Shown: in pieces, positions 6,129 to 57,624 of the stretch
Position numbering within the stretch: the stretch's first letter is position 1
Layout of the letters: every line of letters begins with the position of its first letter
Position numbers and translations under genes: made by a program
Origin: an uncultured Dehalococcoidia bacterium
Lineage (GTDB): Bacteria > Chloroflexota > Dehalococcoidia > DSTF01 > RBG-16-68-14
Direction: 5' to 3'
Length of the DNA stretch: 64,000 nt
Assembly: GCA_964406605.1 (NCBI GenBank)
Contig: CAYOSF010000004.1
Span: forward strand, 36,322 to 100,321
Notes under the pieces: generated by a model
What the model was told of the DNA's origin: nothing
What the model saw: the letters and a program-made list of their open reading frames with translations, nothing else
The model's database searches: none

Positions 6129-6731
6129 ATGAACGCCATCATAAAGGTCACCGGTCTCATGGTCATGGTAGCGGCGGGGTACATCGGAATAGCTGGAGGC
6201 GTCGTCCAGGCGGCACCGGGGCCCGAAGAGGCGCAGATGGAGCGGATCACCGACCCGTGCATGGTGCTCGCGGACTGCATCCAGATCGATCCCTGTCTCG
6301 TCGTGGATTGTGACGATGAGCCGGCCGTTGAGCCTGCTGACGACCCGGCCGTTGAGCCTGCTGACGACCCGGTCGTTGAGCCTGGTGACGACCCGGCCGT
6401 TGAGCCCGGCGACGACCCGGCCGTTGAGCCTGGTGACGACCCGGCCGACGATCCTGGGGACGACCCGGCCGACGACCCTGGGGACGATCCCGGAGACGAC
6501 CCGGGCGACAATCCGGGCGACGATCCTGGAGACCACCCTGGTGACCAGCCGGGCGGTGACCCTGGGAACCAGCCCGGGACCAGCTCTCTGCCCGACGCCG
6601 GCACCGGCGACGGCGCCCCGGCCCAGAACAGCCAGGGAGTCATCGTTCTCGCCGCACTGGGCATCGCGGGCATCGCGATCCTGTTCGCCATGTTCGTGGC
6701 GTTCCGGAGCAAGGAATCGTCCGCACGCTGA
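6129..6731 (+). CDS. Secreted/anchored acidic tandem-repeat protein (Asp/Pro-rich)
   Basis: N-terminal hydrophobic signal/TM. Five 8-aa repeats (DDPAVEPA/G), then about twelve 4-aa repeats (DDPG/DDPA). C-terminal LPDAGTG...hydrophobic helix...RSKESSAR tail. Confidence 0.5.
   Translation: MNAIIKVTGLMVMVAAGYIGIAGGVVQAAPGPEEAQMERITDPCMVLADCIQIDPCLVVDCDDEPAVEPADDPAVEPADDPVVEPGDDPAVEPGDDPAVEPGDDPADDPGDDPADDPGDDPGDDPGDNPGDDPGDHPGDQPGGDPGNQPGTSSLPDAGTGDGAPAQNSQGVIVLAALGIAGIAILFAMFVAFRSKESSAR
6304..6590 (+). repeat. In-frame tandem repeats (24-bp x5, then 12-bp x~12) inside CDS 6129..6731
   Basis: Repeating gacgacccggccgttgagcctgstgac units followed by gacgayccbggv units, read directly from the sequence. 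Confidence 0.7.
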
Positions 6732-17494: not shown

Positions 17495-17657
17495 CCGCGC
17501 CACGAGCGGCCGGCCGAGAGACTGCTGAACAAACTCCGCAAATCTGTCCCACCCGCCCGCCCGGTTGTGTTTGTTGAATCTGGGGGACACCCCCAGACCC
17601 CCGGCAGAGTCCTTCCCGGGAAGGACTCTGCACTCCCCCTTCTTCCGCAGGCTCAGC

Positions 17658-39845: not shown

Positions 39846-39957
39846 GGGGCCGGACTGGCTCCCCGAGCAGTCCTTCCCCGGAAGGAGAACCTGCAATCCT
39901 TCCCCGGAAGGACGGTTAATCCTTCCCTGGAAGGACCCGCTCTGGCGGGTGAGCGAT
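39846..39957. repeat. Family-2 repeat (tRNA-Asn 3'-half-like unit with two CCTTCCCCGGAAGGA palindromes)
   Basis: TGGCTCCCCGAGCAGTCCTTCCCCGGAAGGAGAACCTGCAATCCTTCCCCGGAAGGA…; compare tRNA-Asn 3' half TGGCTCCCCGAGCAGGACTCGAACCTGCAACC at 46860-46891. Confidence 0.75.
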
Positions 39958-40062
39958 GGGGAACTAGGGAGCCTGCGCTCCGGCCGTTGGGCGACTATGG
40001 TATCACGCGGCCTGTTACGCCGCGAACCACAGAACCTCTCCCCCACCGATCGCGGTCTCCAC

Positions 40063-41355
40063 CTAGCCCGCAAGACGCCCGGATTCCGATCTCAGACGGT
40101 TTGAGGGCGGGCTGGGCGAGCGGCCGTAAGCCGCGGATCCCGCGTCCCAAACGAAGACGGCGAATACTGCCGCTAAGACGGCGATGAGCGGGTCGAGTGG
40201 GAAGTGGTAGCGCGGGAAGGTCTCGAAGTAGCTGAACAGGAGCGTCCAGCCGAGAGCGGCGACGACCACTACTAGCCCTCCCCTGTTACGGCGCACGATC
40301 ACTAAGCCGAATCCTACCAACGCCGCCGCGCCCGCCACGAAGTAGAACGCATCCGCCAGGCGGCGCCAACCCCGCTCCTCCGCCGGCGTGAGCGGCTGTT
40401 CGTAGCCCGGCACGGTCGCCCCGCCCCCCGGACCCTTCTGGATCATGCGGATCCCATCGGCGTCCGTCCGGTACAGGTTTTGGAGGCGCCGCCCAACCGT
40501 GGTCGGGACCTCCCAGGGATGGGTAATCTGATAGCGGAGGCCGGTGGGCAGCGGCAACGGGTCGCCTTCGCCGATACCGATCCCGTGCCTGTCTGGATCG
40601 AGGGAAGTCGCGATCACGTCACCCGTCCCGCTTCGGAGCGGAATGAATGCGTGGAGTTCAACCGGGTTGCGGACGGTCCAGGGCGTAAGCGCCAGTACGA
40701 CGCCTAGCGCCAGGAGTGCCCCATATCGGGCGACCGTCCGCCACGGGCGTACCGTGATGGCCCAGAGCGCGAGCAGCACTACGGCGAGGAACACACCTTC
40801 GGACCGGACCATGCCCGCCATACCGGTGAGGAGTCCGAGGACGAACACCTGCCACCACAGGGCTTCGCGGCGTTCGACCGTCCAGACGAATGCGAGGAAG
40901 AGGACTAGGAGGAAGACCATCGCGAACATGGTCTCCGTCAACACCAGAGTGGAGAAATATATCTGGCCCGGGAAGAGGGCGAGGATCAGTGCACCCAGCA
41001 GCGCGACCCGGCGATCGAAGGCTCGACGAGCGAATAGGTAGGCGAGGGCAATGGTTGCGGCGGCGAATGCGATGTTCAGCACTTTCGCGACCGTGACATG
41101 GAACCCGAACAGCTTGTAGAAGGCGGCCAGGGTTGCGGTGTAGGCGGGCGCCCAGCGAGCGGTGACACCTAGCCCGTAGGGGGAGACGTACCCCTCCCCA
41201 CGGGCGAGCAAGTGCGCGACGTTGTGATACGCCACGCTGTCGTCGAAGCGGCCGTCGTTCGGGTCGACGTTGACATGAACCACCCAGAGGATGCGCAGCA
41301 CGACGGCGGCGAGGATCAACGCCGCGAACCAGGGAAGCTCCGCTCTTGTCAACAT
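40063..41355 (-). CDS. Membrane glycosyltransferase, GT39/ArnT/PMT-like
   Basis: More than 10 TM helices. DPNDGRFDDSVAYHNVAHLLARGEGY loop typical of ArnT/PMT-family transferases. Start at MLTRAELPWFAAL. Confidence 0.6.
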   Translation of the reverse strand: MLTRAELPWFAALILAAVVLRILWVVHVNVDPNDGRFDDSVAYHNVAHLLARGEGYVSPYGLGVTARWAPAYTATLAAFYKLFGFHVTVAKVLNIAFAAATIALAYLFARRAFDRRVALLGALILALFPGQIYFSTLVLTETMFAMVFLLVLFLAFVWTVERREALWWQVFVLGLLTGMAGMVRSEGVFLAVVLLALWAITVRPWRTVARYGALLALGVVLALTPWTVRNPVELHAFIPLRSGTGDVIATSLDPDRHGIGIGEGDPLPLPTGLRYQITHPWEVPTTVGRRLQNLYRTDADGIRMIQKGPGGGATVPGYEQPLTPAEERGWRRLADAFYFVAGAAALVGFGLVIVRRNRGGLVVVVAALGWTLLFSYFETFPRYHFPLDPLIAVLAAVFAVFVWDAGSAAYGRSPSPPSNRLRSESGRLAG

Positions 41356-41835
41356 GGAGGGGTGTGCCGGCTCCCACAGCCTGCCGACGCAGTCCACGCC
41401 GGCAGCGGCGGCGCGCTCATGGGCCGGTAGTTCTACAGGTACCGGCAAGTCGAAACCGAACACTCGACCACAGGCCACGCATCGAACTTGCATAGCAGCG
41501 CCGTCCTAACACAATCCGTGGGTGAGTGGCGGTGGCCTCCCCATCACGGTTGGAATAGTAGCACCAGGGGGCGCTTGTTGCGGAGAGGTAATCGTTCACG
41601 CGCTCGATGGACGCCGATCACGGCGGTGCCTAGGCCCTCGCTGCCCGGGTCGGGAGGTGCATGCCAACACGAAGGAAGTGACCCGTGGAGGGGAGCGTGA
41701 ACGATGATAACGTCCCACAACGATTCTCTGGTGCAGCCCGAATCGTGCCGACTCCTCACGCTCTCCGTGCCTGAGGAGTTCCACGTCCCCGTCGTCTTCC
41801 CCAGCCGTCGAATACCCGGGGCGGGATCGGGCGTC

Positions 41836-42372
41836 ATGGGCCAAATGCGGCGGCCCGACCTGTCGGTACACATCAGTCTTGGCGTGCTTTGGGCTTCGTC
41901 ACGGCCCTCCTCAGCCGCTCTTTGGCACGAGCTGCTTTGCGTCTGCTACCACGAGTTCGGCCACGTAGCCACGTTCTGGGCACAAGGCTATGTCTCAGTG
42001 GGCGAGTATGTGGTTTGCGGTGATGGCTGCCGCCGGGCTGAGCGAGCAGAAGGGTTGGTCCTAATGCCGAAATCCTCGCTCCGCTCGCTCGTGATTGCCA
42101 ACAATTGCGGATGCACACGCAGCACCCGTCGAATCCGTCAACTGCTCAGATCAACATTGACAACTAATGCTTGGTGTGTTGCCACCGAGACCTCCTCTGC
42201 TGACCTCAGAGCATGCTCATCTGGGGGGCTGGTGGTGGTTCAGGTGCCGAATCCGCGGGTGTTGAGTCTGGTGTTAGCTGTTGGCTCCCCGAGCATCCTT
42301 CCCCGGAAGGAGAACCTGCAATCCATCCCCGGAAGGACCCGCTCTACTGGTTGGTGGGTCTTCTGCGTCTGA
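41836..42372 (+). CDS. Possible degraded HExxH-motif ORF (YHEFGH), lower GC, 3' end replaced by family-2 repeat
   Basis: Only support: HEFGH motif, a local GC drop, and no better ORF in 41500-42280. Composition is odd (Cys/Ser-rich). Confidence 0.2.
   Translation: MGQMRRPDLSVHISLGVLWASSRPSSAALWHELLCVCYHEFGHVATFWAQGYVSVGEYVVCGDGCRRAERAEGLVLMPKSSLRSLVIANNCGCTRSTRRIRQLLRSTLTTNAWCVATETSSADLRACSSGGLVVVQVPNPRVLSLVLAVGSPSILPRKENLQSIPGRTRSTGWWVFCV
42284..42350. repeat. Family-2 repeat unit
   Basis: TGGCTCCCCGAGCATCCTTCCCCGGAAGGAGAACCTGCAATCCATCCCCGGAAGGACCCGCTCTACTGG. Confidence 0.8.
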
Positions 42373-42601
42373 GGCGTTCGCGCAATTCCTGGTTCGCTCT
42401 GCCTCGCTTGAGTTCTCGCTCCCGGCGCATGGCGGCGGTCCGGGTAGGGAACTCCTCAGAGTACACCAACTGCCAGGGGCCTCGCGTGGCCGTCCACTTG
42501 GCCTGTCCCTCAGCATGCTCGGTCAAGCGCCGGGCCAGGTCTCTGGTGCTTCCGACGTACAATCGTCCTTCCGGGTTCTGCAACACGTAGACAGAGAACA
42601 A
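42344..42601 (-). CDS. GIY-YIG nuclease-family small protein
   Basis: FSVYVLQNPEGRLYVGSTRDLARRLTEHAEG…WQLVYSEEFPTRTAAMRRERELK. Start set at the TTG at 42601 because the longer ORF N-terminus is encoded by the repeat array. Confidence 0.6.
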   Translation of the reverse strand: MFSVYVLQNPEGRLYVGSTRDLARRLTEHAEGQAKWTATRGPWQLVYSEEFPTRTAAMRRERELKRGRANQELRERLRRRRPTNQ

Positions 42602-42622
42602 GAACGCCCCTTGACTCCGGAA

Positions 42623-42895
42623 AGCGGACTGGCTCCGCGAGCGTCCTTCCCTGGAAGGAGAACCTGCAACCCAGCGCTCGATCTTTCGCTGGAAGGACCT
42701 GCTCTGTGGTTGAGTAACTGGCTCCCCGAGCATCCTTCCCCGGAAGGACCCGCTCTATGGTTTGGTGGACTGGCTCCCCGAGCATCCTTCCCCGGAAGGA
42801 GAACCGGCAACCCAGCGGTGAATCCTTCCCCGGAAGGACCCGCTCTATGGTTTGGCGAAATGGCTCCCCGCGCCGGGGTAAAATCCGAACTTTTC
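42623..42895. repeat. Tandem array (~3.5 units) of family-2 repeats
   Basis: Units beginning CTGGCTCCCCGAGCATCCTTCCCCGGAAGGA…, in long (~90 bp) and short (~50 bp) forms. Confidence 0.85.
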
Positions 42896-43016
42896 TGACC
42901 TTCACCCTCCTCGCCGCCGCTGACCGCTGCAAGCGCCCCGCGCGCTGGCAGGCGGTCTTGAGTCTTTCGCCGGTTGATCGACGAAATGAACCCCTCGCCG
43001 GTCTCAGGGATATATA

Positions 43017-43610
43017 TTGAAGTGGCGAAAGAAGGTCGTTGTGGCAGAATCCGACATGATTCGCCGGGCGAAGGAAGGGGACCGGGCAGCGCTGTCCGAG
43101 CTGCTGGCCACCTATCGCGACCAGGCCTATCGGCTCGCCCTCCATATCGTTCGCAACCCAAATGATGCGGAAGACGCCACTCAAAACGCCTTCGTCCGTG
43201 CCTTTACCCACCTCGATCGCTTCGACGAGAGCCGGCCCCTTTCGCCGTGGCTGCTGCGCATCGTCGTCCGCGAGGCCCTAAAGCTCTTGCGGGCGGAGAA
43301 GGTTAGATTCGCGTTTTCGCAGCGGCAAATCCAAGTCCGAGAGATAGAAGAAACGGTGGAGTCAGCGGTAATGGTCAGGGCGGAGCACAAAGACCTGTGG
43401 CGCGCCGTAAACCGGCTAGGGAATAAGCACCGACTGGTGTTGACGCTCAGCTATCTTATGGAGATGGCCGAGGCAGAGGTGGCGCAGGTGTTGGGCATCA
43501 GGCGCGGCACGGTGAAGTCGAGAAAGCACAACGCCCTAGTTCGTCTGCGCGCACTCGTGGAACGGGAATTTCCGGACCTGCAGCCGATGGTGCTGGGGGC
43601 CCCCCAATGA
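43017..43610 (+). CDS. ECF-subfamily RNA polymerase sigma factor
   Basis: Region 2 (…DAEDATQNAFVRAF…) and region 4 (…AEVAQVLGIRRGTVKSR…). Confidence 0.8.
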   Translation: MKWRKKVVVAESDMIRRAKEGDRAALSELLATYRDQAYRLALHIVRNPNDAEDATQNAFVRAFTHLDRFDESRPLSPWLLRIVVREALKLLRAEKVRFAFSQRQIQVREIEETVESAVMVRAEHKDLWRAVNRLGNKHRLVLTLSYLMEMAEAEVAQVLGIRRGTVKSRKHNALVRLRALVEREFPDLQPMVLGAPQ

Positions 43611-45181
43611 GACAGTACAGCGAATTGGACCGCCTGGAGGCGGCACTGGTAGAGATGGGCCAGGGCATGAGCTACGCGGCTACGCCGAACTTCGAGCCGA
43701 AGGTGCTGGCGGCTCTGGAGCGAGCACGCGGCGCGCGGCCGCGGCTTGTCACAGGCCTTCGGGTCGTGACCCCGCGCGTGATCCTCATCATCGCCCTGTC
43801 GCTGGCGCTGCTGGCCGCCGTGGCCGCCAGCGCTTACTACGTCAGCGTGCGGGTCGGCTTTATGCCCGGCGTCGGGTTCGTCGAACTCGACGAGACCCTG
43901 ATTCTCGCCGAGCCTGTCGCGGTTGAACAGGGTGGGCTGACCGTGCAGGTGAACCAGGTGGTCGCCAATCCTGAAGGGACGCGGATCCAGTACTCGATCT
44001 CGCCATTCTTCCCGCTTCCGGACGAGGGGCAGGCGATTAACCCGTATAACCTGCCTGTTGACCCTGACCTCCCATACGAGCCCAAACTGCTGCTTCCCGA
44101 CGGGAGGGTGTTGTCTGAAAACGGCGGGGGTGTGGGTTTCATGAACTCCGACGACCCCAGCGACCTCCGACCGGGGTTCGTAATGACAGGGGGGCATATC
44201 GACTTTGCTGCCCTTCCCAAAGGCGCCCACGACGTTACCTTGATCCTGAACTGCATCCCGGTTCAGCCGGGGGACATTGGCCCTGTACCTATGGGGACCC
44301 GCGCGCCGCAGCCCTGCATCCCAGGCGAGTGGCGGGTCGCCCTCCGGCTCGTCCCGGCCACAGAGGGGCGTTTCTCCCTTTCCCAGCCTTACGATCCGCA
44401 GGTCAGCGCGAGCGCCGATGGCGTGACCATGCGCGTGCAGCAGGTGGCGCATAACGACCAGGAAACCGCCGTCGAGCTGCAGTTCGAGTGGGACAACCCG
44501 GCCTGGCTGTATCCGGGTTCTGTGTACACTTCGGATTTGCAGGACGAACTTGGTCATCAATATTTACAAATCGGGAACAAAAAGGGTGGGATGACCGAGA
44601 TCGGTTGTGTTTGGTGCGCAAATGTCGTCACGCGAGACACGCCCGGCGGGCAGGTGATGTCCGAAGTGCAAACGCTTGCTTTTGCCCCCGTTTCCCACCA
44701 GGCCAGGGAGGTGACCCTCACGGTTGAAGCCCTCACATTTGTCGTGCCAGCCAGCGACGAGTTTTCGATTGACCTGGGTCCTGATCCGCAGGTCGGGCAG
44801 ACCTGGACCTTAGACCAGATCTTGCAGGTGGTCGGATACGAAGTCCACCTGTTCGGGGCGCGCCTAACCAAGAAAGATGGCTTGTTCTCGCTGGAACTCT
44901 TCTTCAAACTCAAAACAGAAGAGCCAACCGATTCCTACCTGAATGATTTTTCTGCTCATCCATTGAATGCACGGTTTTTCCAGTTGGGGGGCTGTGCGGA
45001 AGCAGACCAAACGCGCTGCATGCCGGGATGGGCGAGGGAAGCCGCCGCTGGGCATCGCGGGATCATGCTGTCTATCGAAACAGACGAGATGCCGCGCGGG
45101 CGGCAATCATTCGTCATCGGTGAGGCGACGATCGGGTTGCGCGGCCCCTGGCAGGTCACCTGGCCGATTCCCAGCCCCTGA
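43607..45181 (+). CDS. Membrane anti-sigma factor (N-terminal cytoplasmic domain, one TM, large extracytoplasmic domain)
   Basis: ATGA overlap with the sigma gene. TM at VILIIALSLALLAAVAASAYYV. Typical sigma/anti-sigma pairing. Confidence 0.65.
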   Translation: MRQYSELDRLEAALVEMGQGMSYAATPNFEPKVLAALERARGARPRLVTGLRVVTPRVILIIALSLALLAAVAASAYYVSVRVGFMPGVGFVELDETLILAEPVAVEQGGLTVQVNQVVANPEGTRIQYSISPFFPLPDEGQAINPYNLPVDPDLPYEPKLLLPDGRVLSENGGGVGFMNSDDPSDLRPGFVMTGGHIDFAALPKGAHDVTLILNCIPVQPGDIGPVPMGTRAPQPCIPGEWRVALRLVPATEGRFSLSQPYDPQVSASADGVTMRVQQVAHNDQETAVELQFEWDNPAWLYPGSVYTSDLQDELGHQYLQIGNKKGGMTEIGCVWCANVVTRDTPGGQVMSEVQTLAFAPVSHQAREVTLTVEALTFVVPASDEFSIDLGPDPQVGQTWTLDQILQVVGYEVHLFGARLTKKDGLFSLELFFKLKTEEPTDSYLNDFSAHPLNARFFQLGGCAEADQTRCMPGWAREAAAGHRGIMLSIETDEMPRGRQSFVIGEATIGLRGPWQVTWPIPSP

Positions 45182-45232
45182 TTACGGCGCTGCAATCCGA
45201 CGACGCACGGTTCACACAGCAAGGAGGTTCAC

Positions 45233-45845
45233 GATGAAAATGGCAGTCCGGCCGCTAAGGCTATTCGTGCCTGCAGCGGTCATCCTATCCCTGGCGGCCT
45301 TCGTGCTCGCCACACCCGCGGTGGCGACACACGGGCAGCCGGAGAAGCAGCTTCCGTTCCAACTTGTGCAGACGGGGTCGGGCATCGTCGAGTTGGCCCC
45401 GGGGTTTCCGTTCGAGCGCAGCACCGTCGGCGGGCGCTGTTCCGTCCCCTCCGACGCCCTCAGCAGTTGGGACTACACGGGTACAGCGACCCACCTCGGC
45501 TCGTTCACCGCTGAAGCCAGCCACTGCTCGCTGCTGGACCTGGCAGCCGGCGTCGGCACCTTTGGTGACGGCGTGTACACGGCCACGGCGGCGAACGGCG
45601 ACACGTTCACGTACACGTACGACAACGGGTTGACGGCATTCCACCCGGACGGAACGATCACGTATACCGGTGATGCGACGATCACGGGCGGAACCGGTCG
45701 CTTCGCCGGTGCGACGGGCGAGATCCTCGAGGTCAGCGGGACAGTGTTGGAGTCCGACATGACGGTGACGCCGTGGGTGGTGACGGTCGCCGAGACGCTC
45801 GGTGGCTGGATCGCCTGCGACGCGTCGCAGAGAAGCGGACCGTAG
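45233..45845 (+). CDS. Secreted hypothetical protein (signal peptide)
   Basis: MKMAVRPLRLFVPAAVILSLAAFVLATPAVA signal. AAGGAGG RBS at 45219-45225. Confidence 0.5.
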
Positions 45846-45914
45846 CAGGCGATGTTCGGTACGGGCAAGGCGCAGGTGCAAGAATGGCGGCGGCGGGCCG
45901 CGAGGAGGAATGAC

Positions 45915-46367
45915 ATGCCAGTGCGATGGGCCTTGGCCATGGCCATGGCGATCAGTATGCTTCTGCTAGTCGCTTCCTGCGGCGGGGGTGACGGTGGCGC
46001 CGATACCCGCGCAGTGGTCGAGCGAGCCATGGCCGCCTACAGGGAACGCGACGCCGCCGCGTACGCCGCTCTTTTTGCGATTGACGGCAGAATGGACGAT
46101 TTCAGCGCAGTCGGGGACCACGTGCAGGGTCGCGACAAGGTCGAGCACCTGTACCGGCAGTGGTTTTCCATCGTTGTGCCGGCGGACCACACCTCGGAAT
46201 ACAAGATATTGATGGCCGACGAGCATATGGCGATCGTGCAGGTGTCGGACGAGTGGTCCGAAAACGGAAAGACGCTGCGCTTGGAAGGCATCACAGTCTA
46301 CGAGGTCGAGGACGGCGAGATCGTCCGCGAGGCTGACTACTACGACTCGGAGCCCGTGGAGCGTTGA
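45915..46367 (+). CDS. Lipoprotein with SnoaL/NTF2-like fold
   Basis: Lipobox LLLVASC. Ketosteroid-isomerase-like layout. GGAGGA RBS. Confidence 0.5.
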   Translation: MPVRWALAMAMAISMLLLVASCGGGDGGADTRAVVERAMAAYRERDAAAYAALFAIDGRMDDFSAVGDHVQGRDKVEHLYRQWFSIVVPADHTSEYKILMADEHMAIVQVSDEWSENGKTLRLEGITVYEVEDGEIVREADYYDSEPVER

Positions 46368-46859
46368 CTCCCCTAGCAGGGGAGAGCTCGAAGGTCGGTG
46401 GTCTGTCTAGCTGAGGGTTGGACGCAGCGCGTTCTGTACGGTCGGCTGCAGAGCCTGGGGTACGAGGTTGCGTTCCACGACCTTCCGGACTCCCGCCACG
46501 GCCTTTTCAGCGAGGCGGCTCTTCAGGTCGCCGTCGACGCGATCAACCGCCCGGATAGCGACGGGGAAATGTGGAAGCCCCGAGCCTGAATGGGGAAACA
46601 CTCGGTGACGTGGCTCCGTTCCTACCCGTGAGATCGGCGACCTGCGCGTTGTTCGGCCTACTCCTTAACATCGTGGTCGCGTTCTACGCTGGCTCACGAT
46701 CGGTCCGCTATCATTTCGGCGTCTTCAGGCACCGGCGCAGGGTCCGCGCGGCTGCTATGATTTCTTTCTTCATGGAAGGGCTCTATTACTTTCGGACGCA
46801 TGTTTGGGATCAAAGCGGAATGCAGTGGCCAGTCGAGCATCAGCACATATGTTTCATGT

Positions 46860-46937
46860 TGGCTCCCCGAGCAGGACTCGAACCTGCAACCTAGCGGTTA
46901 ACAGCCGCCCGCTCTACCAATTGAGCTATCGGGGAGC
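46860..46937 (-). tRNA. tRNA-Asn: tRNA-Asn (GTT), CCA encoded
   Basis: Reverse complement GCTCCCCGATAGCTCAATTGGTAGAGCGGGCGGCTGTTAACCGCTAGGTTGCAGGTTCGAGTCCTGCTCGGGGAGCCA. 7-bp acceptor stem, D-, anticodon- (CTGTTAA loop) and T-arms fold canonically. Confidence 0.85.
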
Positions 46938-47153: not shown

Positions 47154-47582
47154 CTAGGAAAGGCCGACCCCGACCTGCTGGACGAGGGTCATCATGTCGA
47201 AGTAGCGATGGCTCTCCTTGATCCTTCCGCCCTCGAAGGTGAGTAGCTGGACGGACCGCGTTACCTGATGCTTGCCGGAGGCGGGGATCGTACCGTCCGG
47301 ACCAACGAGCGGGCGGGTGTGGGTCCCCTCCCAGATGATCTCCACCGTGGCGGTGCTGTCGCCGGCGACGGCCTTGGTGATGGTTCCCTTGGCGTCCGGG
47401 AAGGCTTCCTTCCAGCCGCGAGCTGCCTCGACGATCCGATCGGCGCCCCGGACGTGCAGGTGTGACCCGATCTCGTCGTACGCACTATCGGGCGCCAGCG
47501 TGGCCTTGAAGCGCTTCATGTCCCCGTCGTTGAACGCCCCGATGTTCTCTCGAGCCACGTGAATCATCTCTTGCTCGGTCAT
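47154..47582 (-). CDS. Ester-cyclase / SnoaL-like polyketide-cyclase family protein (copy A)
   Basis: MTEQEMIHVARENIGAFNDGDMKRFKATLAPDSAYDE… ~80% identical to copy B. Confidence 0.7.
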   Translation of the reverse strand: MTEQEMIHVARENIGAFNDGDMKRFKATLAPDSAYDEIGSHLHVRGADRIVEAARGWKEAFPDAKGTITKAVAGDSTATVEIIWEGTHTRPLVGPDGTIPASGKHQVTRSVQLLTFEGGRIKESHRYFDMMTLVQQVGVGLS

Positions 47583-47990: not shown

Positions 47991-48419
47991 TCAGGAGGAG
48001 GCGGCCCCGATCTGCTGAAGGAGCGTCATCATGTCGAAGTAGTGGTGGCTCTCCTTGATCCTTTCGCCCTCGAACGTGAATACTTCTACCGCCCGAGTGG
48101 TCTGGCGCTTGCCGGAGGGAGGAATCGTGCCTCCCGGACCCATGAGCGGTCCGGTATGCGTCCCCTCCCAGATGAGCTCTACCGTGGCGGTGCTGTCGCC
48201 GGCAACCGCCTTGGTGATGGTTCCCCTGGCGTCCGGGAAGGCTTCCTTCCAACCCAGAACGGTCTCTGCGATCTGCTCTGCGCCTTGGATGCGCCGGTGG
48301 GTCCCGACCTCGTCGTAGACGCTGTCGGGCGCCAGCGTGGCCTTGAAGCGCTTCATGTCCCCATCGTTGAACGCCTCGACGTTCTCACGGGCCAAGTGGA
48401 TCATCTCTTGCTCGGTCAT
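47991..48419 (-). CDS. Ester-cyclase / SnoaL-like polyketide-cyclase family protein (copy B)
   Basis: MTEQEMIHLARENVEAFNDGDMKRFKATLAPDSVYDE…. Start at Met45 of ORF 47991..48551. Confidence 0.7.
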   Translation of the reverse strand: MTEQEMIHLARENVEAFNDGDMKRFKATLAPDSVYDEVGTHRRIQGAEQIAETVLGWKEAFPDARGTITKAVAGDSTATVELIWEGTHTGPLMGPGGTIPPSGKRQTTRAVEVFTFEGERIKESHHYFDMMTLLQQIGAASS

Positions 48420-48518
48420 TTCCTGCTCCTTCCTTTCGATCTCCCCCCGAGTGTCTTGGCGGCCCTCCGAACGGGATGGAGGGTATACCATGCTTACAAG
48501 CAAGCGTAGCATGGTTTG

Positions 48519-48533
48519 ATTGACGAAGTCAAT
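48519..48533. promoter_or_regulatory. Second copy of ATTGAC-GAA-GTCAAT palindrome
   Basis: Identical 15-mer, same relative position between the cyclase (copy B) and HIT genes. Confidence 0.45.
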
Positions 48534-48709
48534 CGCTTTCATAGGAAACACCTAGGATTCCATGGTTATGTAGGGCAGAAGTGTCCTTCGGAGATGTATG
48601 GAGGTCTTGACTCGGCCGGAGTCCGAGCGTAAAGTGCTGATACAGATAGACGTTTGCCTATTTCCGATAGCCCGCAGGGGGCCGAGTGTCTCCAGGGCCC
48701 GTAGCCGGC

Positions 48710-50698: not shown

Positions 50699-51724
50699 AT
50701 GAGACATGATAGGGGGTTGACAGAGGCGAACGAACATTCTACTATGGCGCTTGATGACTGTCTTTGCCTTGGCATGGCCAAGTCGACGGCCTGTGTAGTA
50801 GTCCCCATGCAGAAAGGACGTTCTTTGCCATCCACCATTCGAATTGTGGGGCCTGACGGGCATGGCGTACCTGGTGGAGGGGGAGCTACGCATCATGACC
50901 TGCGCTTGGGTGACGCGCGCCAGCTTAGCTGGGTCCCAGATGGGTCGGTCCATTTGGTCTTGACCTCACCTCCCTACTGGACCCTGAAGAAGTACAACGA
51001 CCATCCCGATCAGCTAGGCAATGTGACTGACTACGAGACTTTTCTCAACGAGCTTGACAAGGTATGGACGCACTGCTATCGGGCCTTGGTGCCGGGCGGC
51101 CGACTGGTCTGCGTTGTTGGCGATGTGTGCTTGGCCAGACGAAGGAACGCCGGACGCCACATGGTGGTTCCGCTGCACGCAGACATATCAACACGATGCC
51201 GGCGGATAGGGTTCGACTACCTCACGCCGATCCTCTGGCACAAGATTGCCAATGCAAGCTATGAAGTGGAGAACGGTTCATCCTTCTTAGGCAAGCCCTA
51301 CGAGCCGAATGCGATAATCAAGAATGACATAGAGTACGTCCTAATGCTGCGAAAACCTGGAGGGTACCGGAAGCCTACGGAAGAACAGCGAGGTCGTTCG
51401 AAGCTGTCCAAGGACGAGCACCGGCGATGGTTCAGGCCAATCTGGGCTGACCTTCCGGGTGCTTCAACGCGGGATCACCCAGCTCCGTTCCCACTTGAAC
51501 TGGCCTATCGGGCCATTAGGATGTTCTCTTTTGTCGGCGACACAGTGCTCGATCCCTTTGTCGGCACTGGCACCACGGTAGTGGCGGCCATACGCGCGGA
51601 GCGGAACTCCGTGGCGAGTGAGGTTGACCCCCAATACCTTCAAATGGCTGAGCGTGCCGCCAGGAAGGAGACTTCCCAGCAGCGCCTCTTCGGTCTTTCG
51701 GCAGTCATCGATCCGGATCTGTGA
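50699..51724 (+). CDS. DNA methyltransferase, beta-class (motif IV before motif I), probably N4-cytosine-specific
   Basis: LVLTSPPYW (SPPY motif IV) N-terminal and DPFVGTGTT (FxGxG motif I) C-terminal. Markedly lower GC than surroundings. Alternative start ATG at 50762. Confidence 0.7.
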   Translation: MRHDRGLTEANEHSTMALDDCLCLGMAKSTACVVVPMQKGRSLPSTIRIVGPDGHGVPGGGGATHHDLRLGDARQLSWVPDGSVHLVLTSPPYWTLKKYNDHPDQLGNVTDYETFLNELDKVWTHCYRALVPGGRLVCVVGDVCLARRRNAGRHMVVPLHADISTRCRRIGFDYLTPILWHKIANASYEVENGSSFLGKPYEPNAIIKNDIEYVLMLRKPGGYRKPTEEQRGRSKLSKDEHRRWFRPIWADLPGASTRDHPAPFPLELAYRAIRMFSFVGDTVLDPFVGTGTTVVAAIRAERNSVASEVDPQYLQMAERAARKETSQQRLFGLSAVIDPDL

Positions 51725-55221: not shown

Positions 55222-57624
55222 TCACGGCGGGCGCCATGCGTACTCGGGCTGGACACGGAGTCGCTCACCGTCGGTGGAGAGCCGGACCGTGCCGTGTTGG
55301 TCGGTACGAAAGAGCAGCGAGCCGCCCAGCCGGTCGAGGACGGCGCGCGCGGGGTGGCCGAAGGTGTTCTCCTCGCCGACCGAGACGACGGCGACGGCCG
55401 GCTGCACCGCCCGGACGAACGCGGCGCCCGTCGAGGTGCGTGAGCCGTGGTGGGGCACCTTGAGCACCGACGCGCGCAGGTCGGCCTTGGAATCGAGCAA
55501 CGCTTCCTCGCTGAGGGCCTCGATGTCACCGGCCAGGAGGAAGCTGACCTGCCGCCAGGTCAGCTTGAGCACGAGCGAGGCGTCGTTGGGCTCGCCTCCG
55601 GCGAGCATCTCTTCGTCCGGCGCGAGGACCCGCAGCGTCGCACCGTCGTCCAGGTCTACCCGGTCGCCGACCCGCGCCTCGTGGTACGGAATGTCCTCCA
55701 GCCGGATCAGCTCGCGCCATTCCTCGTAGGCGGCGGTATCCGCCTCGCGCGGCGTGGCGAGCACCTGCTTTACGTCGTAGCGTTCCAGCACATCGATGAG
55801 GCCGGCCAGATGATCGTCCTCCGGGTGGGTGAGCGCCACGAGGTCGAGGGTGTGCTCCCAGAAGGGGAGCTCCCGTCCCAATGCCTCGGTGACGGCCTGG
55901 CCGCTGGCCCCGCCATCGATGAGGAGATTGCGGCCGTCCGGGGTCTCCACCAGGATGGCGTCGCCCTGGCCGACGTCCAGGACGTTGACGGTGAGCCGCC
56001 CGCCGCTCCCGCCCAGCGCGGCCCACCAGGAGAGGGCGGCGAAGAGGGCGAAGCCGGCCCCGAGCAGCCAGACCGGCCGCAAGCCGAACCCGCCGGTGAC
56101 TGTCCGCTCGGGCGTGGAGGCCGTCGCCGGATCGAATCGCGGCCGGCTCAGCCACCAGGCGAAGACGGCGAGCGCGAGGTAGGCCGCGGCGGCGTGCCCG
56201 GCGCCGAAGCCGGAGACGTGGAACGAGGCGAGCGGGATGGCCGCGAAGAAACGGGCGATTTCGATCATGTAGGTGAGGGCGGCCCACGAGAACCAGGCCG
56301 TGGCGTGGCCGAGCGGCTCCCAGAGGACGCCGGCCGCCGCCGTGAGGGCCGAGCTGCCGAGGATGATCGGGAAGGCGGGTACCAGCAGCAGGTTCGAGAC
56401 CAGCGCCACGGCGGAGACCCGGCCGAAGTTGAGCGCGATGAGGGGCAGTGTGGCCATCACGGCGCCCGCGGTCATCACCATGCCCTCCAAGATGCCTCCC
56501 GCCAAGCCGCCTTCGGTCGTCCCAACGTCCCAAGAGCGGAGGAGGTCGGCGGCGCGCTCCTGGAGCATGGGCGTGAGATAGACGAGGCCGAGGATGGCGG
56601 CGAAGCTGAGCTGAAAGGAGACGTCCTCGATCACGAACGGATGCCAGCCGGTCATGATCGCCGCCGCCAGCGTGATGGAGGTGAGAGCGCTGCCCGGCCG
56701 GCCGACGAGGGTGGCCAGGACGAAGAGGCTGCCCATGATCGCCGCCCGTACTACTGTCGGTGACGCGCCGGTGAGTGCGGTGTAGCCGGCGATGGCGACG
56801 AGGGCCACCAGGGCAGCCTGTCGCCGGCCGATGAGCCAGGCCAGCCCGCTCATGATGAGCGCGGCCACCAGGCTGACGTTGTGACCGGAGATCGCGATCA
56901 GGTGCGAGGTGCCGGTCGCGTTCAGGTCGTCCGTCAGGTCCGTCGGGATGGCGGAGCGCTGACCGAGGAAGATGCCCTGGGCGAGGGCGGCCTGCGGCTC
57001 GGGCAGGGCTCGCGCGAGGGCGTCGCCCAGGCGGTTGCGCACGGAGTGGAGCGCGGCCAGGGCGGGGTTGCCCTCGCCGGTGGCGATGGTGCGCACTTCC
57101 TCCGGGAAGTCGATCACGGAGGCGACGCCCCGGCGCGCGAGGTAGTCGCGGTAATCGAAGTCAGGAAGGATGGGCGGCGTCTCCAACTCGCCCGTCACTT
57201 CAAGCAGCTCGCCGTAGTGGTGCTGGGGGAAGAGGCCGCAGCGCAACAGCACGCCGCCCGAGGTGGACCGCCACCGTCCGCCGTCGAGCACCTCGCGCAC
57301 CGAGAGGCGGACGCGCTGCAACCGGCCGCGCACGTCCGGCTCGTCGCTGACCAGGGCGCGGAAGGTGACGGCGGCGCCGTCGTTGTGGAGGGCGATGCCG
57401 GCGGGCTGATTGGGCGGTCGCTGATCGACGTATCGGAGACCGCCGGCCAGGAAGAGTCCGGCCGAGAGCAGGCCGATGACGGCCAATCGAGGCTGTCGCT
57501 CGAGTGCCGCGGCCACGAGCCCCGCGGCGCCGATCGCGGCGACACCGGGCCACCAGACGGCGCCGCCAACGGCGCCCGCGACGACGCCGAGCAGCCACGC
57601 ACCTGCCAGGTAGACGAGAGTCAC
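55222..57624 (-). CDS. comEC: DNA internalisation competence protein ComEC/Rec2
   Basis: N-terminal DUF4131-like TM region, competence domain, C-terminal MBL domain (VLDVGQGDAILVETPDGRNLLIDGG…HPEDDHLAG…PHHGS). Confidence 0.85.
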   Translation of the reverse strand: MTLVYLAGAWLLGVVAGAVGGAVWWPGVAAIGAAGLVAAALERQPRLAVIGLLSAGLFLAGGLRYVDQRPPNQPAGIALHNDGAAVTFRALVSDEPDVRGRLQRVRLSVREVLDGGRWRSTSGGVLLRCGLFPQHHYGELLEVTGELETPPILPDFDYRDYLARRGVASVIDFPEEVRTIATGEGNPALAALHSVRNRLGDALARALPEPQAALAQGIFLGQRSAIPTDLTDDLNATGTSHLIAISGHNVSLVAALIMSGLAWLIGRRQAALVALVAIAGYTALTGASPTVVRAAIMGSLFVLATLVGRPGSALTSITLAAAIMTGWHPFVIEDVSFQLSFAAILGLVYLTPMLQERAADLLRSWDVGTTEGGLAGGILEGMVMTAGAVMATLPLIALNFGRVSAVALVSNLLLVPAFPIILGSSALTAAAGVLWEPLGHATAWFSWAALTYMIEIARFFAAIPLASFHVSGFGAGHAAAAYLALAVFAWWLSRPRFDPATASTPERTVTGGFGLRPVWLLGAGFALFAALSWWAALGGSGGRLTVNVLDVGQGDAILVETPDGRNLLIDGGASGQAVTEALGRELPFWEHTLDLVALTHPEDDHLAGLIDVLERYDVKQVLATPREADTAAYEEWRELIRLEDIPYHEARVGDRVDLDDGATLRVLAPDEEMLAGGEPNDASLVLKLTWRQVSFLLAGDIEALSEEALLDSKADLRASVLKVPHHGSRTSTGAAFVRAVQPAVAVVSVGEENTFGHPARAVLDRLGGSLLFRTDQHGTVRLSTDGERLRVQPEYAWRPP

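Follow-up and report, generated by a model that had tools for sequence, protein, structure and literature searches.

The 64,000-nt stretch of DNA analyzed here (the window) carries short repeats resembling tRNA-Asn on both sides of a small GIY-YIG nuclease gene. The locus raises the question of whether such repeats are the junctions of islands integrated at the tRNA gene, copies of a dispersed repeat, or parts of an element to which the nuclease itself belongs.

tRNA-Asn-derived units and their palindromes

The tRNA-Asn(GTT) gene was located at 46860-46935 on the minus strand (ARAGORN; Rfam tRNA 71.4 bits), and six units derived from it were recognized, all on the strand of the tRNA and all to its 3' side. 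Allowing up to 2 mismatches, the sequence TGGCTCCCCGAGCA was matched 8 times in the window where 1.2 matches were expected, a count reached by 0 of 100 shuffles; six of the eight matches lie within 39856-42874 and another is the tRNA. The palindrome TCCTTCCCCGGAAGGA, searched with at most 3 mismatches, gave 26 strand-matches in the window against 0.95 expected, and is found at 10 sites in 39871-42838 and as one solitary copy at 17610. In the form TCCTTCC(S)GGGAAGGA it is present in ten copies in the unit cluster, where about 1 would occur by chance. The features of the locus are:

39856-39962, minus strand: U1, solo full-length pseudo-tRNA-Asn with palindromes at 39871-86, 39897-912 and 39920-35 (alignment, fold)
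39963-42281, no strand assigned: DNA between U1 and U2, with a PMT_2-family glycosyltransferase gene and about 0.8 kb without a recognizable gene
42282-42346, minus strand: U2, 3' end of the intact cassette, palindromes at 42296-42311 and 42322-37 (alignment)
42344-42601, minus strand: minimal GIY-YIG nuclease gene, 85 aa, Slx1/UPF0213 type (Pfam PF01541, E=1.6e-17)
42602-42629, minus strand: leader between U3a and the ORF, with a Shine-Dalgarno-like AAGGGG 5 nt before the TTG start (sequence reading)
42630-42706, minus strand: U3a, decaying, palindromes at 42644-42659 and 42682-42697, the second degenerate (alignment, palindrome search)
42719-42757, minus strand: U3b, short, with one palindrome at 42733-42748 and a deletion between two palindromes (alignment)
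42771-42847, minus strand: U3c, pseudo-tRNA-Asn from D-arm to CCA, palindromes at 42785-42800 and 42823-42838 (alignment, palindrome search)
42861-42900, minus strand: U3d, acceptor-stem minihelix remnant (…AAAAGTTCGGATTTTACCCCGGCGCGGGGAGCCA), the member of the array closest to the tRNA (alignment, sequence)
42901-46859, no strand assigned: DNA between array and tRNA, with four plus-strand genes
46860-46935, minus strand: functional tRNA-Asn(GTT), template for every unit (ARAGORN, Rfam)

Alignment of the units with the tRNA (alignment A1) revised their extent. The first-pass annotation had taken them for the 3' half of the tRNA, which held for the 3' part, but the units run from the D-loop/D-stem (TAGAGCGGG) through the CCA, and U1, which is full length (RNA fold z=-2.9), additionally retains the 5' acceptor strand, in degenerate form, and the complete and intact D-arm. 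The palindrome was likewise present as annotated, but rather than replacing the whole T-arm, one copy stands for GAGTC(C) only, that is, the 3' part of the T-loop and the first base(s) of the T-stem 3' strand. Another copy takes the place of CGGCTG, which forms the anticodon stem's 5' strand, and a third, in U1, that of CTAGG in the variable loop. U3b and U2 are deletion products between palindromes, U2 being a U1-like unit minus the segment between palindromes A and B. The spacers beside U3a (42707-42718), beside U3b (42758-42770) and on the 5' side of U3c (42848-42860, 13 nt) are only 12-13 nt long and share homology with the final codons of the GIY-YIG ORF. Derivation from tRNA-Asn and linkage to the GIY-YIG gene, as first proposed, were borne out by alignment A1 and by the stop codon of the ORF, which lies inside U2 and is the TAG of the unit's 'TAGAGC'; the coordinates given for the repeats, their strand and their position 3' of the tRNA were essentially right on re-reading of the sequence, and the gene at 42344-42601 was confirmed by Pfam.

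A piece homologous to U3d (GTGAAGGTCAAAAAAAGTTCGGATTTACCCCCGACCCGGGGAGCCA) stands before a unit in the metagenome locus L073.

The nuclease, its cassette and the intervening DNA

The GIY-YIG ORF scores 64 bits against PF01541 (cutoff 22.6), with residues 2-67 matched, and its closest PDB relatives are the UPF0213 proteins 1zg2 (E=2e-11) and 1ywl (E=8e-7). Residues Y5, Y15, R25, H29 and E61 are invariant or almost so (alignment A2), and the catalytic residues, the minimal size and the lack of both an accessory domain and an Asn-containing extension at the C-terminus place the protein in the Slx1/UPF0213 branch of the GIY-YIG superfamily. The UPF0213 proteins BH0048 and EF2693, of the B. subtilis YazA type, belong to the same sequence family and are of the same size; the housekeeping members, however, are found in a trmN6-GIY-rsmI operon, unlike the tRNA-lodged cassette described here. 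A 2006 survey treated these housekeeping members as vertically inherited repair proteins and mentioned neither linkage to tRNA genes nor flanking repeats (PMC1564403). The dN/dS of the nuclease is 0.17 against locus L001 and 0.17-0.25 over the comparisons made; by this measure, the gene is under purifying selection, which together with the conserved catalytic residues marks its product as functional. The tRNA-Asn-associated nucleases form one clade spanning several phyla, with relatives that are rare on plasmids and phages; none were found on viral contigs.

The same design was recovered at 18 loci in other phyla, where a tRNA gene (Asn, Gln, Gly, Lys, Met, Asp or Ser) ends, on the same strand, 6-260 nt upstream of a minimal GIY-YIG ORF of the Slx1/UPF0213 type. 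In the canonical cassette, an intact tRNA is followed by a spacer of 6-25 nt, an ORF of about 85 aa and a second tRNA copy that extends from the D-arm or anticodon loop to the CCA and holds the last codons and stop of the ORF. In at least 13 of the 18 loci the ORF terminates within such a duplicate of its tRNA, which bears a lineage-specific palindrome. This second copy contains a cassette-specific GC-rich palindrome in the anticodon stem, and often in the T-loop or variable loop too, with the consensus TCCNNC-loop-GNNGGA across cassettes. The Asn palindrome type of the window is shared by L001 (78% aa identity), L070 (an AT-rich host) and L083, all three of which also show the overlap of ORF and unit seen at U2. 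Other palindromes occur at the Asn loci L011-L015, L020 and L021, and the non-Asn loci include L022 (Gln), L019 (Gly), L023 (Lys, a CPR bacterium), L016 (Asp), L018 (Met) and L058 (Ser). The local tRNA is the best match of the tRNA-derived parts in 12 of 12 units; as far as the compared sequences go, the palindromes are shown to travel with the cassette and not with the local tRNA. At L083, two divergent cassettes lie in tandem at one site and differ in palindrome type. Tandem copies were found at L012, L019, L022, L024 and L083, and ORF-less derivatives at L073, L076 (a solo unit analogous to U1), L077 and L080. Of 8,591 homologous clusters, the top 150 include 16 whose C-terminal tail is encoded by tRNA or hairpin sequence and at least 14 whose N-terminus reads through a tRNA T-arm.

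Because this design recurs at other loci, the window is read as an intact cassette with its decayed derivatives, namely three upstream tandem copies in which deletion has left only the final 12-13 nt of the ORF (U3a-c), a minihelix remnant (U3d) and a solo pseudo-tRNA (U1). Neither a literature record nor an Rfam entry was found for a tRNA-lodged GIY-YIG cassette; the arrangement is apparently undescribed, occurs in many bacterial phyla, and looks like a selfish element.

Intervening segments of 4.0 kb and 2.3 kb now separate the tRNA, the array and U1. The first (42901-46859) encodes, all on the plus strand, an ECF sigma factor, a putative anti-sigma factor, a matchless ORF and a SnoaL-like protein. 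Between U1 and U2 are an intact PMT_2-family glycosyltransferase gene (40063-41493, minus strand) and the stretch of about 0.8 kb (GC 0.59-0.64), which contains the HEFGH ORF (41704-42372, plus strand), present but without a match in Pfam, PADLOC or PHROG. U1 abuts ilvD, a high-GC core gene whose neighborhood is not syntenic in relatives sharing 83-88% ilvD identity. The GC profile, suggested in the first-pass annotation as a check, is lowered to 0.57-0.66 across 39.8-48.8 kb, whereas the flanks are at 0.68-0.72; variable DNA beside a tRNA would be expected to show such a drop.

This layout, with direct repeats of the tRNA 3' end in the same orientation on the 3' side of the gene and lower-GC variable DNA between them, is shared with tyrosine-integrase tRNA islands, and the first-pass annotation had offered successive integrations at the 3' end of tRNA-Asn as one origin of the units. 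Each event would have left one direct repeat, with the GIY-YIG gene as unrelated cargo. At L003, L005 and L010 a homologous module does adjoin an integrase fragment, an HTH_17 excisionase-like gene and a tRNA-Pro 3' fragment. Nevertheless, a Pfam scan found no integrase among the main ORFs of 36-57 kb of the window, att sites have no need of palindromes, the units reach the D-arm or full length, and the stop of the ORF lies within one of them. Furthermore, U3a-c are 12-13 nt apart with spacers derived from the ORF end, and the ORF-plus-unit module recurs behind tRNAs in many genomes of other phyla without integrases and with no island between. Successive integration is thereby made a very improbable origin of the units, although it may have been the source of the two intervening segments.

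Classification as a tRNA-integrating island is not supported, since the repeats should then be plain direct repeats but here bear 1-3 palindromes and overlap the ORF, and a dispersed MITE or REP repeat was rejected, as the units form one cluster in 64 kb and the true metagenome matches are tRNA-Asn-like. Of 17 metagenome matches to the unit, nine are tRNA-Asn-like units and the remaining eight arose by chance in unrelated sequence; repeat copies spread over numerous loci with no tie to tRNA genes, which the first-pass annotation had associated with a pure MITE, were not found. Its other proposal, of a tRNA-derived element possibly mobilized by the GIY-YIG nuclease, points in the right direction, given the ORF-less copies here (U3a-c, U1) and at the four loci noted above.

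Palindrome structure at the DNA and RNA levels

Base pairing in the palindromes is strongly maintained. Watson-Crick pairs make up 137 of the 138 stem pairs in 23 palindromes; stem positions 2, 4, 5 and 6 each show 3-5 pair types, and the loops are unconstrained. Between the window and L001, pS is 0.49 at synonymous sites, yet 12 of 12 stem positions are identical per palindrome while the loops differ; on these comparisons the stems show covariation, and their conservation far exceeds the level set by synonymous divergence. Inserts in the T-loop comprise 1-3 hairpins of 16-57 nt, and their position in the loop shifts slightly among L011, L012, L020 and L058. The T-loop palindrome is absent in several lineages (L013-L015, L022), leaving 25-41 nt of uninterrupted identity, so that breaking of homology cannot be what the palindromes do in general. 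The gene of a sister actinobacterial clade has arrays of hairpin repeats on its two sides, in inverted orientation (57 copies within 800 nt, 3 farther off), which points to recognition at the DNA level.

Such an arrangement resembles REP/RAYT REPtrons and IS200/IS605 elements, in which short GC-rich hairpins also cluster around a single nuclease-type gene and, as in the actinobacterial relatives, are inverted on its two sides. The palindromes could then be the proliferating modules of an element that combines hairpin repeats and a structure-specific nuclease, the GIY-YIG equivalent of a REP/RAYT or IS200-type system. An Slx1-like nuclease would cut loops or stem junctions of extruded DNA hairpins, either in tRNA-gene loops or in its own palindromes; palindromes or units would be inserted or multiplied at the cuts, and tRNA genes would merely be preferred structured targets. 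Consistent with this, identical palindromes occupy 2-3 different loops per unit and are unlike the sequence replaced, the varying positions of the T-loop inserts suggest structure-directed and not sequence-directed insertion, and eukaryotic Slx1 is a structure-specific nuclease (PMC1564403). However, the enzyme is of the GIY-YIG type and not an HUH/Y1 transposase, and GIY-YIG enzymes are hydrolytic, with no known strand-transfer activity. The hairpins are embedded in pseudo-tRNAs and not dispersed, with one solitary copy in 64 kb and all true metagenome matches in tRNA-Asn-like units, and neither terminal inverted repeats nor target-site duplications were found around the tRNA-type units. This origin is regarded as unlikely.

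The palindromes might instead act as RNA, the hairpin-bearing pseudo-tRNA being co-transcribed with the nuclease mRNA and serving as a cis-regulatory or mRNA-stabilizing 3' structure, or as a tRNA-like decoy or antitoxin for a tRNA-acting nuclease, in which case the upstream tandem units would look like a type III toxin-antitoxin array. Units are invariably on the strand of the ORF, and three to four repeats stand directly upstream of the gene in the window. The covariation of stems with free loops, the placement of inserts in loops with retention of the T-stem, and the linkage of family members to tRNA methyltransferases by fusion or operon (PMC1564403; the trmN6-GIY-rsmI operon) would also fit. 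Full units fold more stably than shuffles (z -2.2 to -3.0), but U3c and U2 fold no better than shuffles; the anticodon stem is destroyed in every case, and most units lack the 5' acceptor and D-stem strands, making a tRNA-like L-shape impossible. There is no terminator between repeats and gene, canonical cassettes carry one real upstream tRNA and no repeat array, and in Rfam only the true tRNAs matched, the units and the actinobacterial repeats giving nothing even at E<=10. GIY-YIG enzymes are, as far as known, DNA nucleases, and the inverted actinobacterial repeats argue for DNA recognition. With these objections an RNA-level partnership appears decidedly improbable. [quoted passage not shown]

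Probable homing and the known GIY-YIG systems

The favored interpretation, judged moderately likely, is that the cassette is a homing-type selfish element that lodges at the 3' ends of tRNA genes and amplifies by recombination between its tRNA arms, by a mechanism that we infer as follows. The cassette would be transcribed by read-through from the tRNA promoter, and in some lineages the GGAG of the tRNA-Asn 3' end may provide the Shine-Dalgarno sequence for translation. Its two tRNA-derived arms would allow entry into the cognate tRNA gene of any genome by homologous recombination, and the same arms could lead to tandem amplification or collapse, with breaks or nicks made by the nuclease stimulating recombination, as for phage SegB at tRNA clusters. 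The element-encoded palindromes would turn the duplicate into a non-tRNA and interrupt homology with the real tRNA; they are most likely also the structure bound or cut by the nuclease, since stem sequence is conserved within nuclease lineages.

As for a homing gene, the ORF sits between tRNA-derived sequences, here and at at least 13 other loci. Several points count against homing. The 85-aa protein consists of the catalytic domain only, without the separate DNA-binding or recognition domains of characterized GIY-YIG homing enzymes (its NCBIfam group-I-intron endonuclease score is 24 bits against a cutoff of 56), and we know of no cleavage specificity for the UPF0213-type family. A site wholly within the tRNA would recur in the cassette's own intact tRNA, posing a problem of self-immunity, and the housekeeping members' operon context, with tRNA or rRNA methyltransferases (PMC1564403), would also fit an RNA-directed function. 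Additionally, the cassette in the window is 4 kb from the tRNA, and other events are therefore part of its history.

Two known systems bear directly on a homing-type cassette. Free-standing mitochondrial GIY-YIG elements of the Allomyces atp6 type enter a gene at its 3' end and supply a substitute for that end. In common with the cassettes, their ORF adjoins an essential, conserved gene at its 3' terminus, this host gene is left intact, and a duplicated 3' fragment lies downstream; in the cassettes, however, the target is a bacterial tRNA, the duplicate is systematically remodeled by palindromes and not simply decaying, and the nuclease has no recognition domain. The second system is SegB, a free-standing enzyme in the tRNA gene cluster of T-even phages, where, as in the window, a GIY-YIG gene lies among tRNA genes. 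SegB is a larger protein of the homing-endonuclease/UvrC branch, whereas the protein in the window amounts to a catalytic domain of 85 aa from the Slx1/UPF0213 branch; SegB resides in phage genomes and the cassettes are chromosomal, and no palindrome-bearing partial tRNA duplicate has been described for SegB. [quoted passage not shown] The tandem copies of unit plus ORF end in the window, and the tandem cassettes at the five loci listed above, look as if they arose by the same process.

Repeat units and the nuclease gene at the tRNA-Asn locus

The sole tRNA gene of the window, tRNA-Asn(GTT), lies at 46860-46935 on the minus strand, and six copies of the 14-mer TGGCTCCCCGAGCA (the reverse complement of its acceptor 3' end plus CCA) were found between 39856 and 42874, on the strand of the tRNA and on its 3' side. 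Over the whole window the 14-mer matched 8 times at up to two mismatches, against 1.2 expected, and the palindrome TCCTTCCCCGGAAGGA, which occupies 10 sites within 39871-42838, gave 26 strand-matches at up to three mismatches, against 0.95 expected. Alignment to tRNA-Asn together with a coordinate check defined six units, and bore out the coordinates and orientation assigned to the repeats in the first-pass annotation.

Repeat units and nuclease gene of the window
39856-39962, minus strand: U1, full-length pseudo-tRNA with complete D-arm
42282-42346, minus strand: U2, overlapping the end of the GIY-YIG ORF
42344-42601, minus strand: GIY-YIG ORF, 85 aa, catalytic domain only (Pfam E=1.6e-17)
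42630-42706, minus strand: U3a, preceded by a 12-nt spacer
42719-42757, minus strand: U3b, with one palindrome, preceded by a 13-nt spacer
42771-42847, minus strand: U3c, preceded by a 13-nt spacer
42861-42900, minus strand: U3d, GAAGGTCAGAAAAGTTCGGATTTTACCCCGGCGCGGGGAGCCA

The units had been taken to begin at the T-arm; their start is instead in the D-loop/D-stem (TAGAGCGGG). Replacement of the T-arm by a palindrome, also proposed earlier, was seen for the T-loop, where a palindrome stands in place of GAGTC(C) immediately 3' of GGTTC, but not for the T-arm as a whole, and further palindromes lie elsewhere: a second takes the place of CGGCTG (the 5' strand of the anticodon stem), with TTAACCGC retained, and a third, present only in U1, replaces CTAGG of the variable loop. 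Deletion between two identical palindromes would produce the forms of U3b and U2. U3d resembles an acceptor minihelix of tRNA-Asn, from which the body is deleted, so that the 5' acceptor strand meets the 3' one, and which has a conserved A-rich stretch before it; L073, a metagenome contig unrelated to the window, has a close homologue about 100 nt upstream of its unit, again directly before it.

The nuclease ORF starts at a TTG with AAGGGG ahead of it, and its stop TAG belongs to the TAGAGC of the unit, which places the end of the ORF within U2. The catalytic residues are conserved, and the nearest solved structures are 1zg2 and 1ywl (bacterial UPF0213/Slx1-like). Comparison with the 78%-identical homologue at locus L001 gave a dN/dS of 0.17, and the nuclease is therefore under selection.

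Read along the minus strand, tRNA-Asn is followed by 4.0 kb carrying plus-strand genes (an ECF sigma factor, a putative anti-sigma factor, an unknown ORF and SnoaL), then by U3d, by U3c, U3b and U3a, each behind its spacer, by a 28-nt leader and the overlapping ORF and U2, and, after 2.3 kb with a PMT_2 glycosyltransferase gene and a stretch without recognisable gene, by U1 and the end of the core gene ilvD. The spacers (TTTCGCCAAACCA, GTCCACCAAACCA and GTTACTCAACCA) share homology with the final codons of the nuclease gene (CCCACCAACCAG followed by TAG), and U3a-c are therefore copies, minus the ORF, of a cassette in which a tRNA and a spacer precede a GIY-YIG ORF of about 85 aa that ends inside a second copy of the same tRNA. 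The locus is a collapsed tandem array with one live cassette and a solo pseudo-tRNA, inside about 9 kb of lower GC; GC stays at 0.57-0.66 between about 39.8 and 48.8 kb, and the lowered GC thus reaches the 5' side of the tRNA too. Attachment-site repeats of an integrase may explain the arrival of the two intervening segments. However, the earlier reading of the units as island junctions is not supported: such repeats leave the palindromes, the ORF overlap and the 12-13-nt spacing unexplained, and neither an integrase nor a transposase was found over 36-57 kb of the window.

The host is of Chloroflexota/Dehalococcoidia type, as judged from ilvD homologues, and the ilvD neighbourhood differs in four of four relatives, with no synteny at the locus. 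A promoter and terminator scan did no better than shuffled sequence, the units matched nothing in Rfam at gathering or relaxed thresholds, and PADLOC and PHROGs returned nothing informative for the window. The idea that U2 is an extended duplicate of the tRNA's downstream flank was dropped, the similarity being only about 10 nt. SnoaL-like paralogues flank tRNA-Asn (47154-47582 and 47991-48551 on the minus strand, 45852-46367 on the plus strand), and a few kb beyond it lie an orphan N6/N4 DNA methyltransferase gene (50699-51724) and a ComEC competence gene (55222-57624).

The cassette in other genomes

At L001-L010, the loci of the closest homologue, the unit is the same, down to its two palindromes and their positions, and it overlaps the ORF end. 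A scan of one genome per species gave 56 loci in many phyla. When these are counted together with L011, L070 and L083, 18 loci have a tRNA (Asn, Asp, Met, Gln, Gly, Ser or Leu) on the strand of the ORF, ending 6-260 nt upstream of it, and in at least 13 loci the ORF continues into a second copy of the same tRNA with a GC-rich palindrome. Three Acidobacteriota loci (L013, L014 and L020) read …GGCTGTTAA/TTCGCCGCGGCGAA/TTGC…CCA, the nuclease stop TAA being the TAA of the anticodon loop; at L022 (tRNA-Gln) the entire anticodon arm is replaced by TCCCGCTTTGCGGGA, and at L023 (CPR bacterium, tRNA-Lys) TCCGTCAGCCGACGGA occupies both positions used in the window. The tRNA-derived pieces of the units best match the tRNA of their own locus in 12 of 12 cases, and the palindromes go with the cassette. 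In a rough NJ tree the Asn-associated nucleases form one clade spanning phyla, divided into two subclades according to whether the palindrome stands before or after the anticodon-loop TTAA.

A metagenome scan with the T-loop/palindrome junction as query gave 17 matches; nine are tRNA-Asn-like units whose palindromes are of the window's type. It yielded a textbook cassette in an AT-rich host (L070) and ORF-less derivatives (L073, L077 and L080/L084). Two divergent cassettes stand in tandem at L083, each with its own palindrome, and L076 is a solo full-length hairpin-bearing pseudo-tRNA like U1.

The protein family comprises 8,591 clusters at E<=1e-3 and 50% identity. Among the best 150 of these, 16 end in peptides encoded by a tRNA D-arm plus palindrome (…VERVLPGKD, …NGRAGPPxAD, …GGC) and at least 14 begin with a read-through translation of a tRNA T-arm; linkage to tRNA is therefore common, and visible even in mis-called ORF ends. 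Many of the entries P0141-P0290 are mis-called, some with N-terminal translations of an upstream tRNA T-arm (VAGSNPAPAT, VRGSSP, FESL…), some with C-terminal tails from a pseudo-tRNA D-arm and palindrome (…VERVLPGKD, …NGRAGPPEAD), and several 'proteins' of 190-215 aa are two tandem cassettes read through. Viral contigs scanned with the nuclease protein gave no relatives; in plasmid and phage collections relatives are rare, and the annotated cases are not beside tRNAs. In open-access text and bioRxiv, neither minimal GIY-YIG cassettes linked to tRNAs nor hairpin-bearing pseudo-tRNAs were found described.

Some loci depart from the usual layout. At L023:5960-6720, in a member of the Sungiibacteriota (CPR), the arrangement is permuted: the ORF ends in the live tRNA-Lys and takes its last codons from the 5' acceptor strand of that tRNA. 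Behind the tRNA come two full-length pseudo-tRNA-Lys units with hairpins, and a partial unit stands ahead of the ORF. In the closest homologous locus (L001:6630-6693; also L003, L005 and L010) the GIY-YIG gene begins right beside the 3' fragment, in inverted orientation, of a tRNA-Pro(CGG)-like gene, and next to this fragment are an HTH_17 (excisionase-like) gene and, in some contigs, a partial tyrosine integrase. The cassette of this locus thus borders an integrative element and is not near any live tRNA-Asn.

Palindromes and their probable recognition

Counted directly and not from an alignment, the stems of 23 palindromes hold 138 base pairs, of which 137 are Watson-Crick. Four of the six positions in the stem show 3-5 pair types, whereas the outer TCC/GGA is conserved; the loops vary freely. 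The stems are held by compensatory change. Between the window and L001, 49% of synonymous sites differ as against 0 of 12 stem positions in either palindrome, and the stems are the same at L070 despite lower protein identity; within the nuclease lineage, stem sequence is kept far beyond neutral expectation. The palindromes always entail loss of the anticodon stem; they lie in loops, in positions that vary slightly by lineage, with up to 2-3 per site (L011, L020 and L058). Palindromes that covary and yet are conserved within lineages point to probable specific recognition by the 85-aa enzyme. We take them to be a putative recognition structure of the nuclease and, secondarily, homology breakers and inactivators of the pseudo-tRNA.

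Other origins and roles were considered. An origin as P-nucleotide or fold-back products of local sequence was dropped, as the palindromes have no relation to their flanks, and so was remodelling of anticodon stems, which would suit L013 and L015 but disagrees with L012 and with the window. Several lineages keep 25-41 nt of identity, and a general role in breaking homology below the minimal length for recombination was therefore rejected. A solitary 28-nt perfect palindrome at 17603-17630 (GCAGAGTCCTTCCCGGGAAGGACTCTGC), which holds the 16-nt core of the unit palindromes, is found where two ORFs converge, at a distance of about 22 kb from the cluster and without a tRNA-like flank; it may be a copy that strayed, or else a terminator-like hairpin of no relation to the units.

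The same-strand arrangement and the stem covariation are compatible also with a role at the RNA level, as a 3' structure, decoy or antitoxin, and so are the family's links to tRNA methyltransferases. A survey of the GIY-YIG superfamily in 2006 described such proteins as vertically inherited repair enzymes (PMC1564403). In Radiobacillus kanasensis (L090, NZ_CP088021.1:11696-11971) a housekeeping member lies in a trmN6 - GIY-YIG - rsmI operon, trmN6 being the tRNA m6A37 methyltransferase, in agreement with the methyltransferase associations of that survey (PMC1564403); the ancestral cellular role of the family may be linked to tRNA or rRNA, and an RNA-directed function is therefore possible. Against the RNA-level role, the tRNA 5' half is missing, the anticodon arm is destroyed and the repeats of actinobacterial relatives are inverted. 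With one wobble pair in 138, the strand asymmetry of G·T pairs leaves RNA and DNA folding inseparable.

The relatives of this sister actinobacterial clade (L026-L066, in Microbacterium, Nocardioides, Cryobacterium and other Actinobacteria, and in one Chloroflexota MAG) form a longer GIY-YIG subfamily flanked by several repeats of 40-56 nt, of the form GTCTCGAyrCG-hairpin-CTACTCGACC. The upstream repeats are inverted relative to the downstream ones, with complementarity of up to 91% over 56 nt and 98% over 40 nt (for example, L066:5690-5910 with 6325-6440, and L038:5636-5835 with 6363-6490). A count by a crude motif placed 57 copies at no more than 800 nt from the gene and 3 beyond that distance, and the repeats gave no match to tRNA models or other Rfam families. 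The inverted hairpin arrays have a REP/RAYT-like layout, and such a layout argues for probable recognition at the DNA level. Transposition of hairpin repeats in the manner of REP/RAYT would share most of the evidence for the cassette; however, dispersed copies are lacking, and we know of no strand-transfer chemistry in GIY-YIG enzymes.

Proposed mechanism and related elements

The cassette would be a selfish passenger of tRNA genes, expressed by read-through. Through homologous recombination at its two tRNA arms it could enter the cognate tRNA in any genome, unequal exchange between the arms would give tandem copies and pop-outs, and the nuclease would supply the breaks that stimulate recombination. 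Solo pseudo-tRNAs such as U1 and L076 would be expected from crossover or gene conversion between tRNA and unit. SegB, a phage GIY-YIG endonuclease of the T-even tRNA cluster, cuts tRNA-containing DNA and is the driver of a RecA-type amplification of [tRNA + segB] in tandem (PMC13096335), and is the closest documented mechanism to the amplification proposed here. The finding also resembles free-standing homing-type nuclease elements at tRNA loci, from which it differs in a nuclease without recognition domain, a systematically remodelled duplicate of the target and lineage-specific palindromes.

More broadly, it is conceivable, though we hold it doubtful, that minimal Slx1-like GIY-YIG nucleases (regarded until now as 'UPF0213' housekeeping orphans) are engines of widespread, undescribed bacterial selfish elements that recognise lineage-specific hairpins, a GIY-YIG counterpart of REP/RAYT. 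Just as tentatively, hairpins would be planted in the duplicated tRNA loops behind a live tRNA in many phyla and set in inverted arrays in Actinobacteria, with tRNA homing and tandem amplification. If true, this would give a biological context to an orphan family of 8,591 clusters, explain the tRNA-encoded N- and C-terminal extensions in databases, and provide a chromosomal counterpart to the 'genomic accordion' recently described for SegB at the tRNA clusters of phages. Arrays of tRNA-like fragments beside tRNA genes need then not be integrase scars, and selfish DNA would have a route to tRNA loci without an integrase, with the tRNA sequence serving as promoter, sometimes as ribosome-binding site, and as universal homology arms across phyla; nuclease specificity and enzyme engineering are further points of relevance.

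At L013, L014, L020, L070 and L083 the tRNA-Asn 3' end provides a GGAG resembling a Shine-Dalgarno sequence (SD) 9-14 nt ahead of the start codon of the nuclease, and L012, L015, the second copy of L083 and the window have longer spacers or an SD of their own. This GGAG, part of the universal 3' end of bacterial tRNA-Asn (…GGAG-CCA), may be part of the reason why tRNA-Asn is favoured as host.
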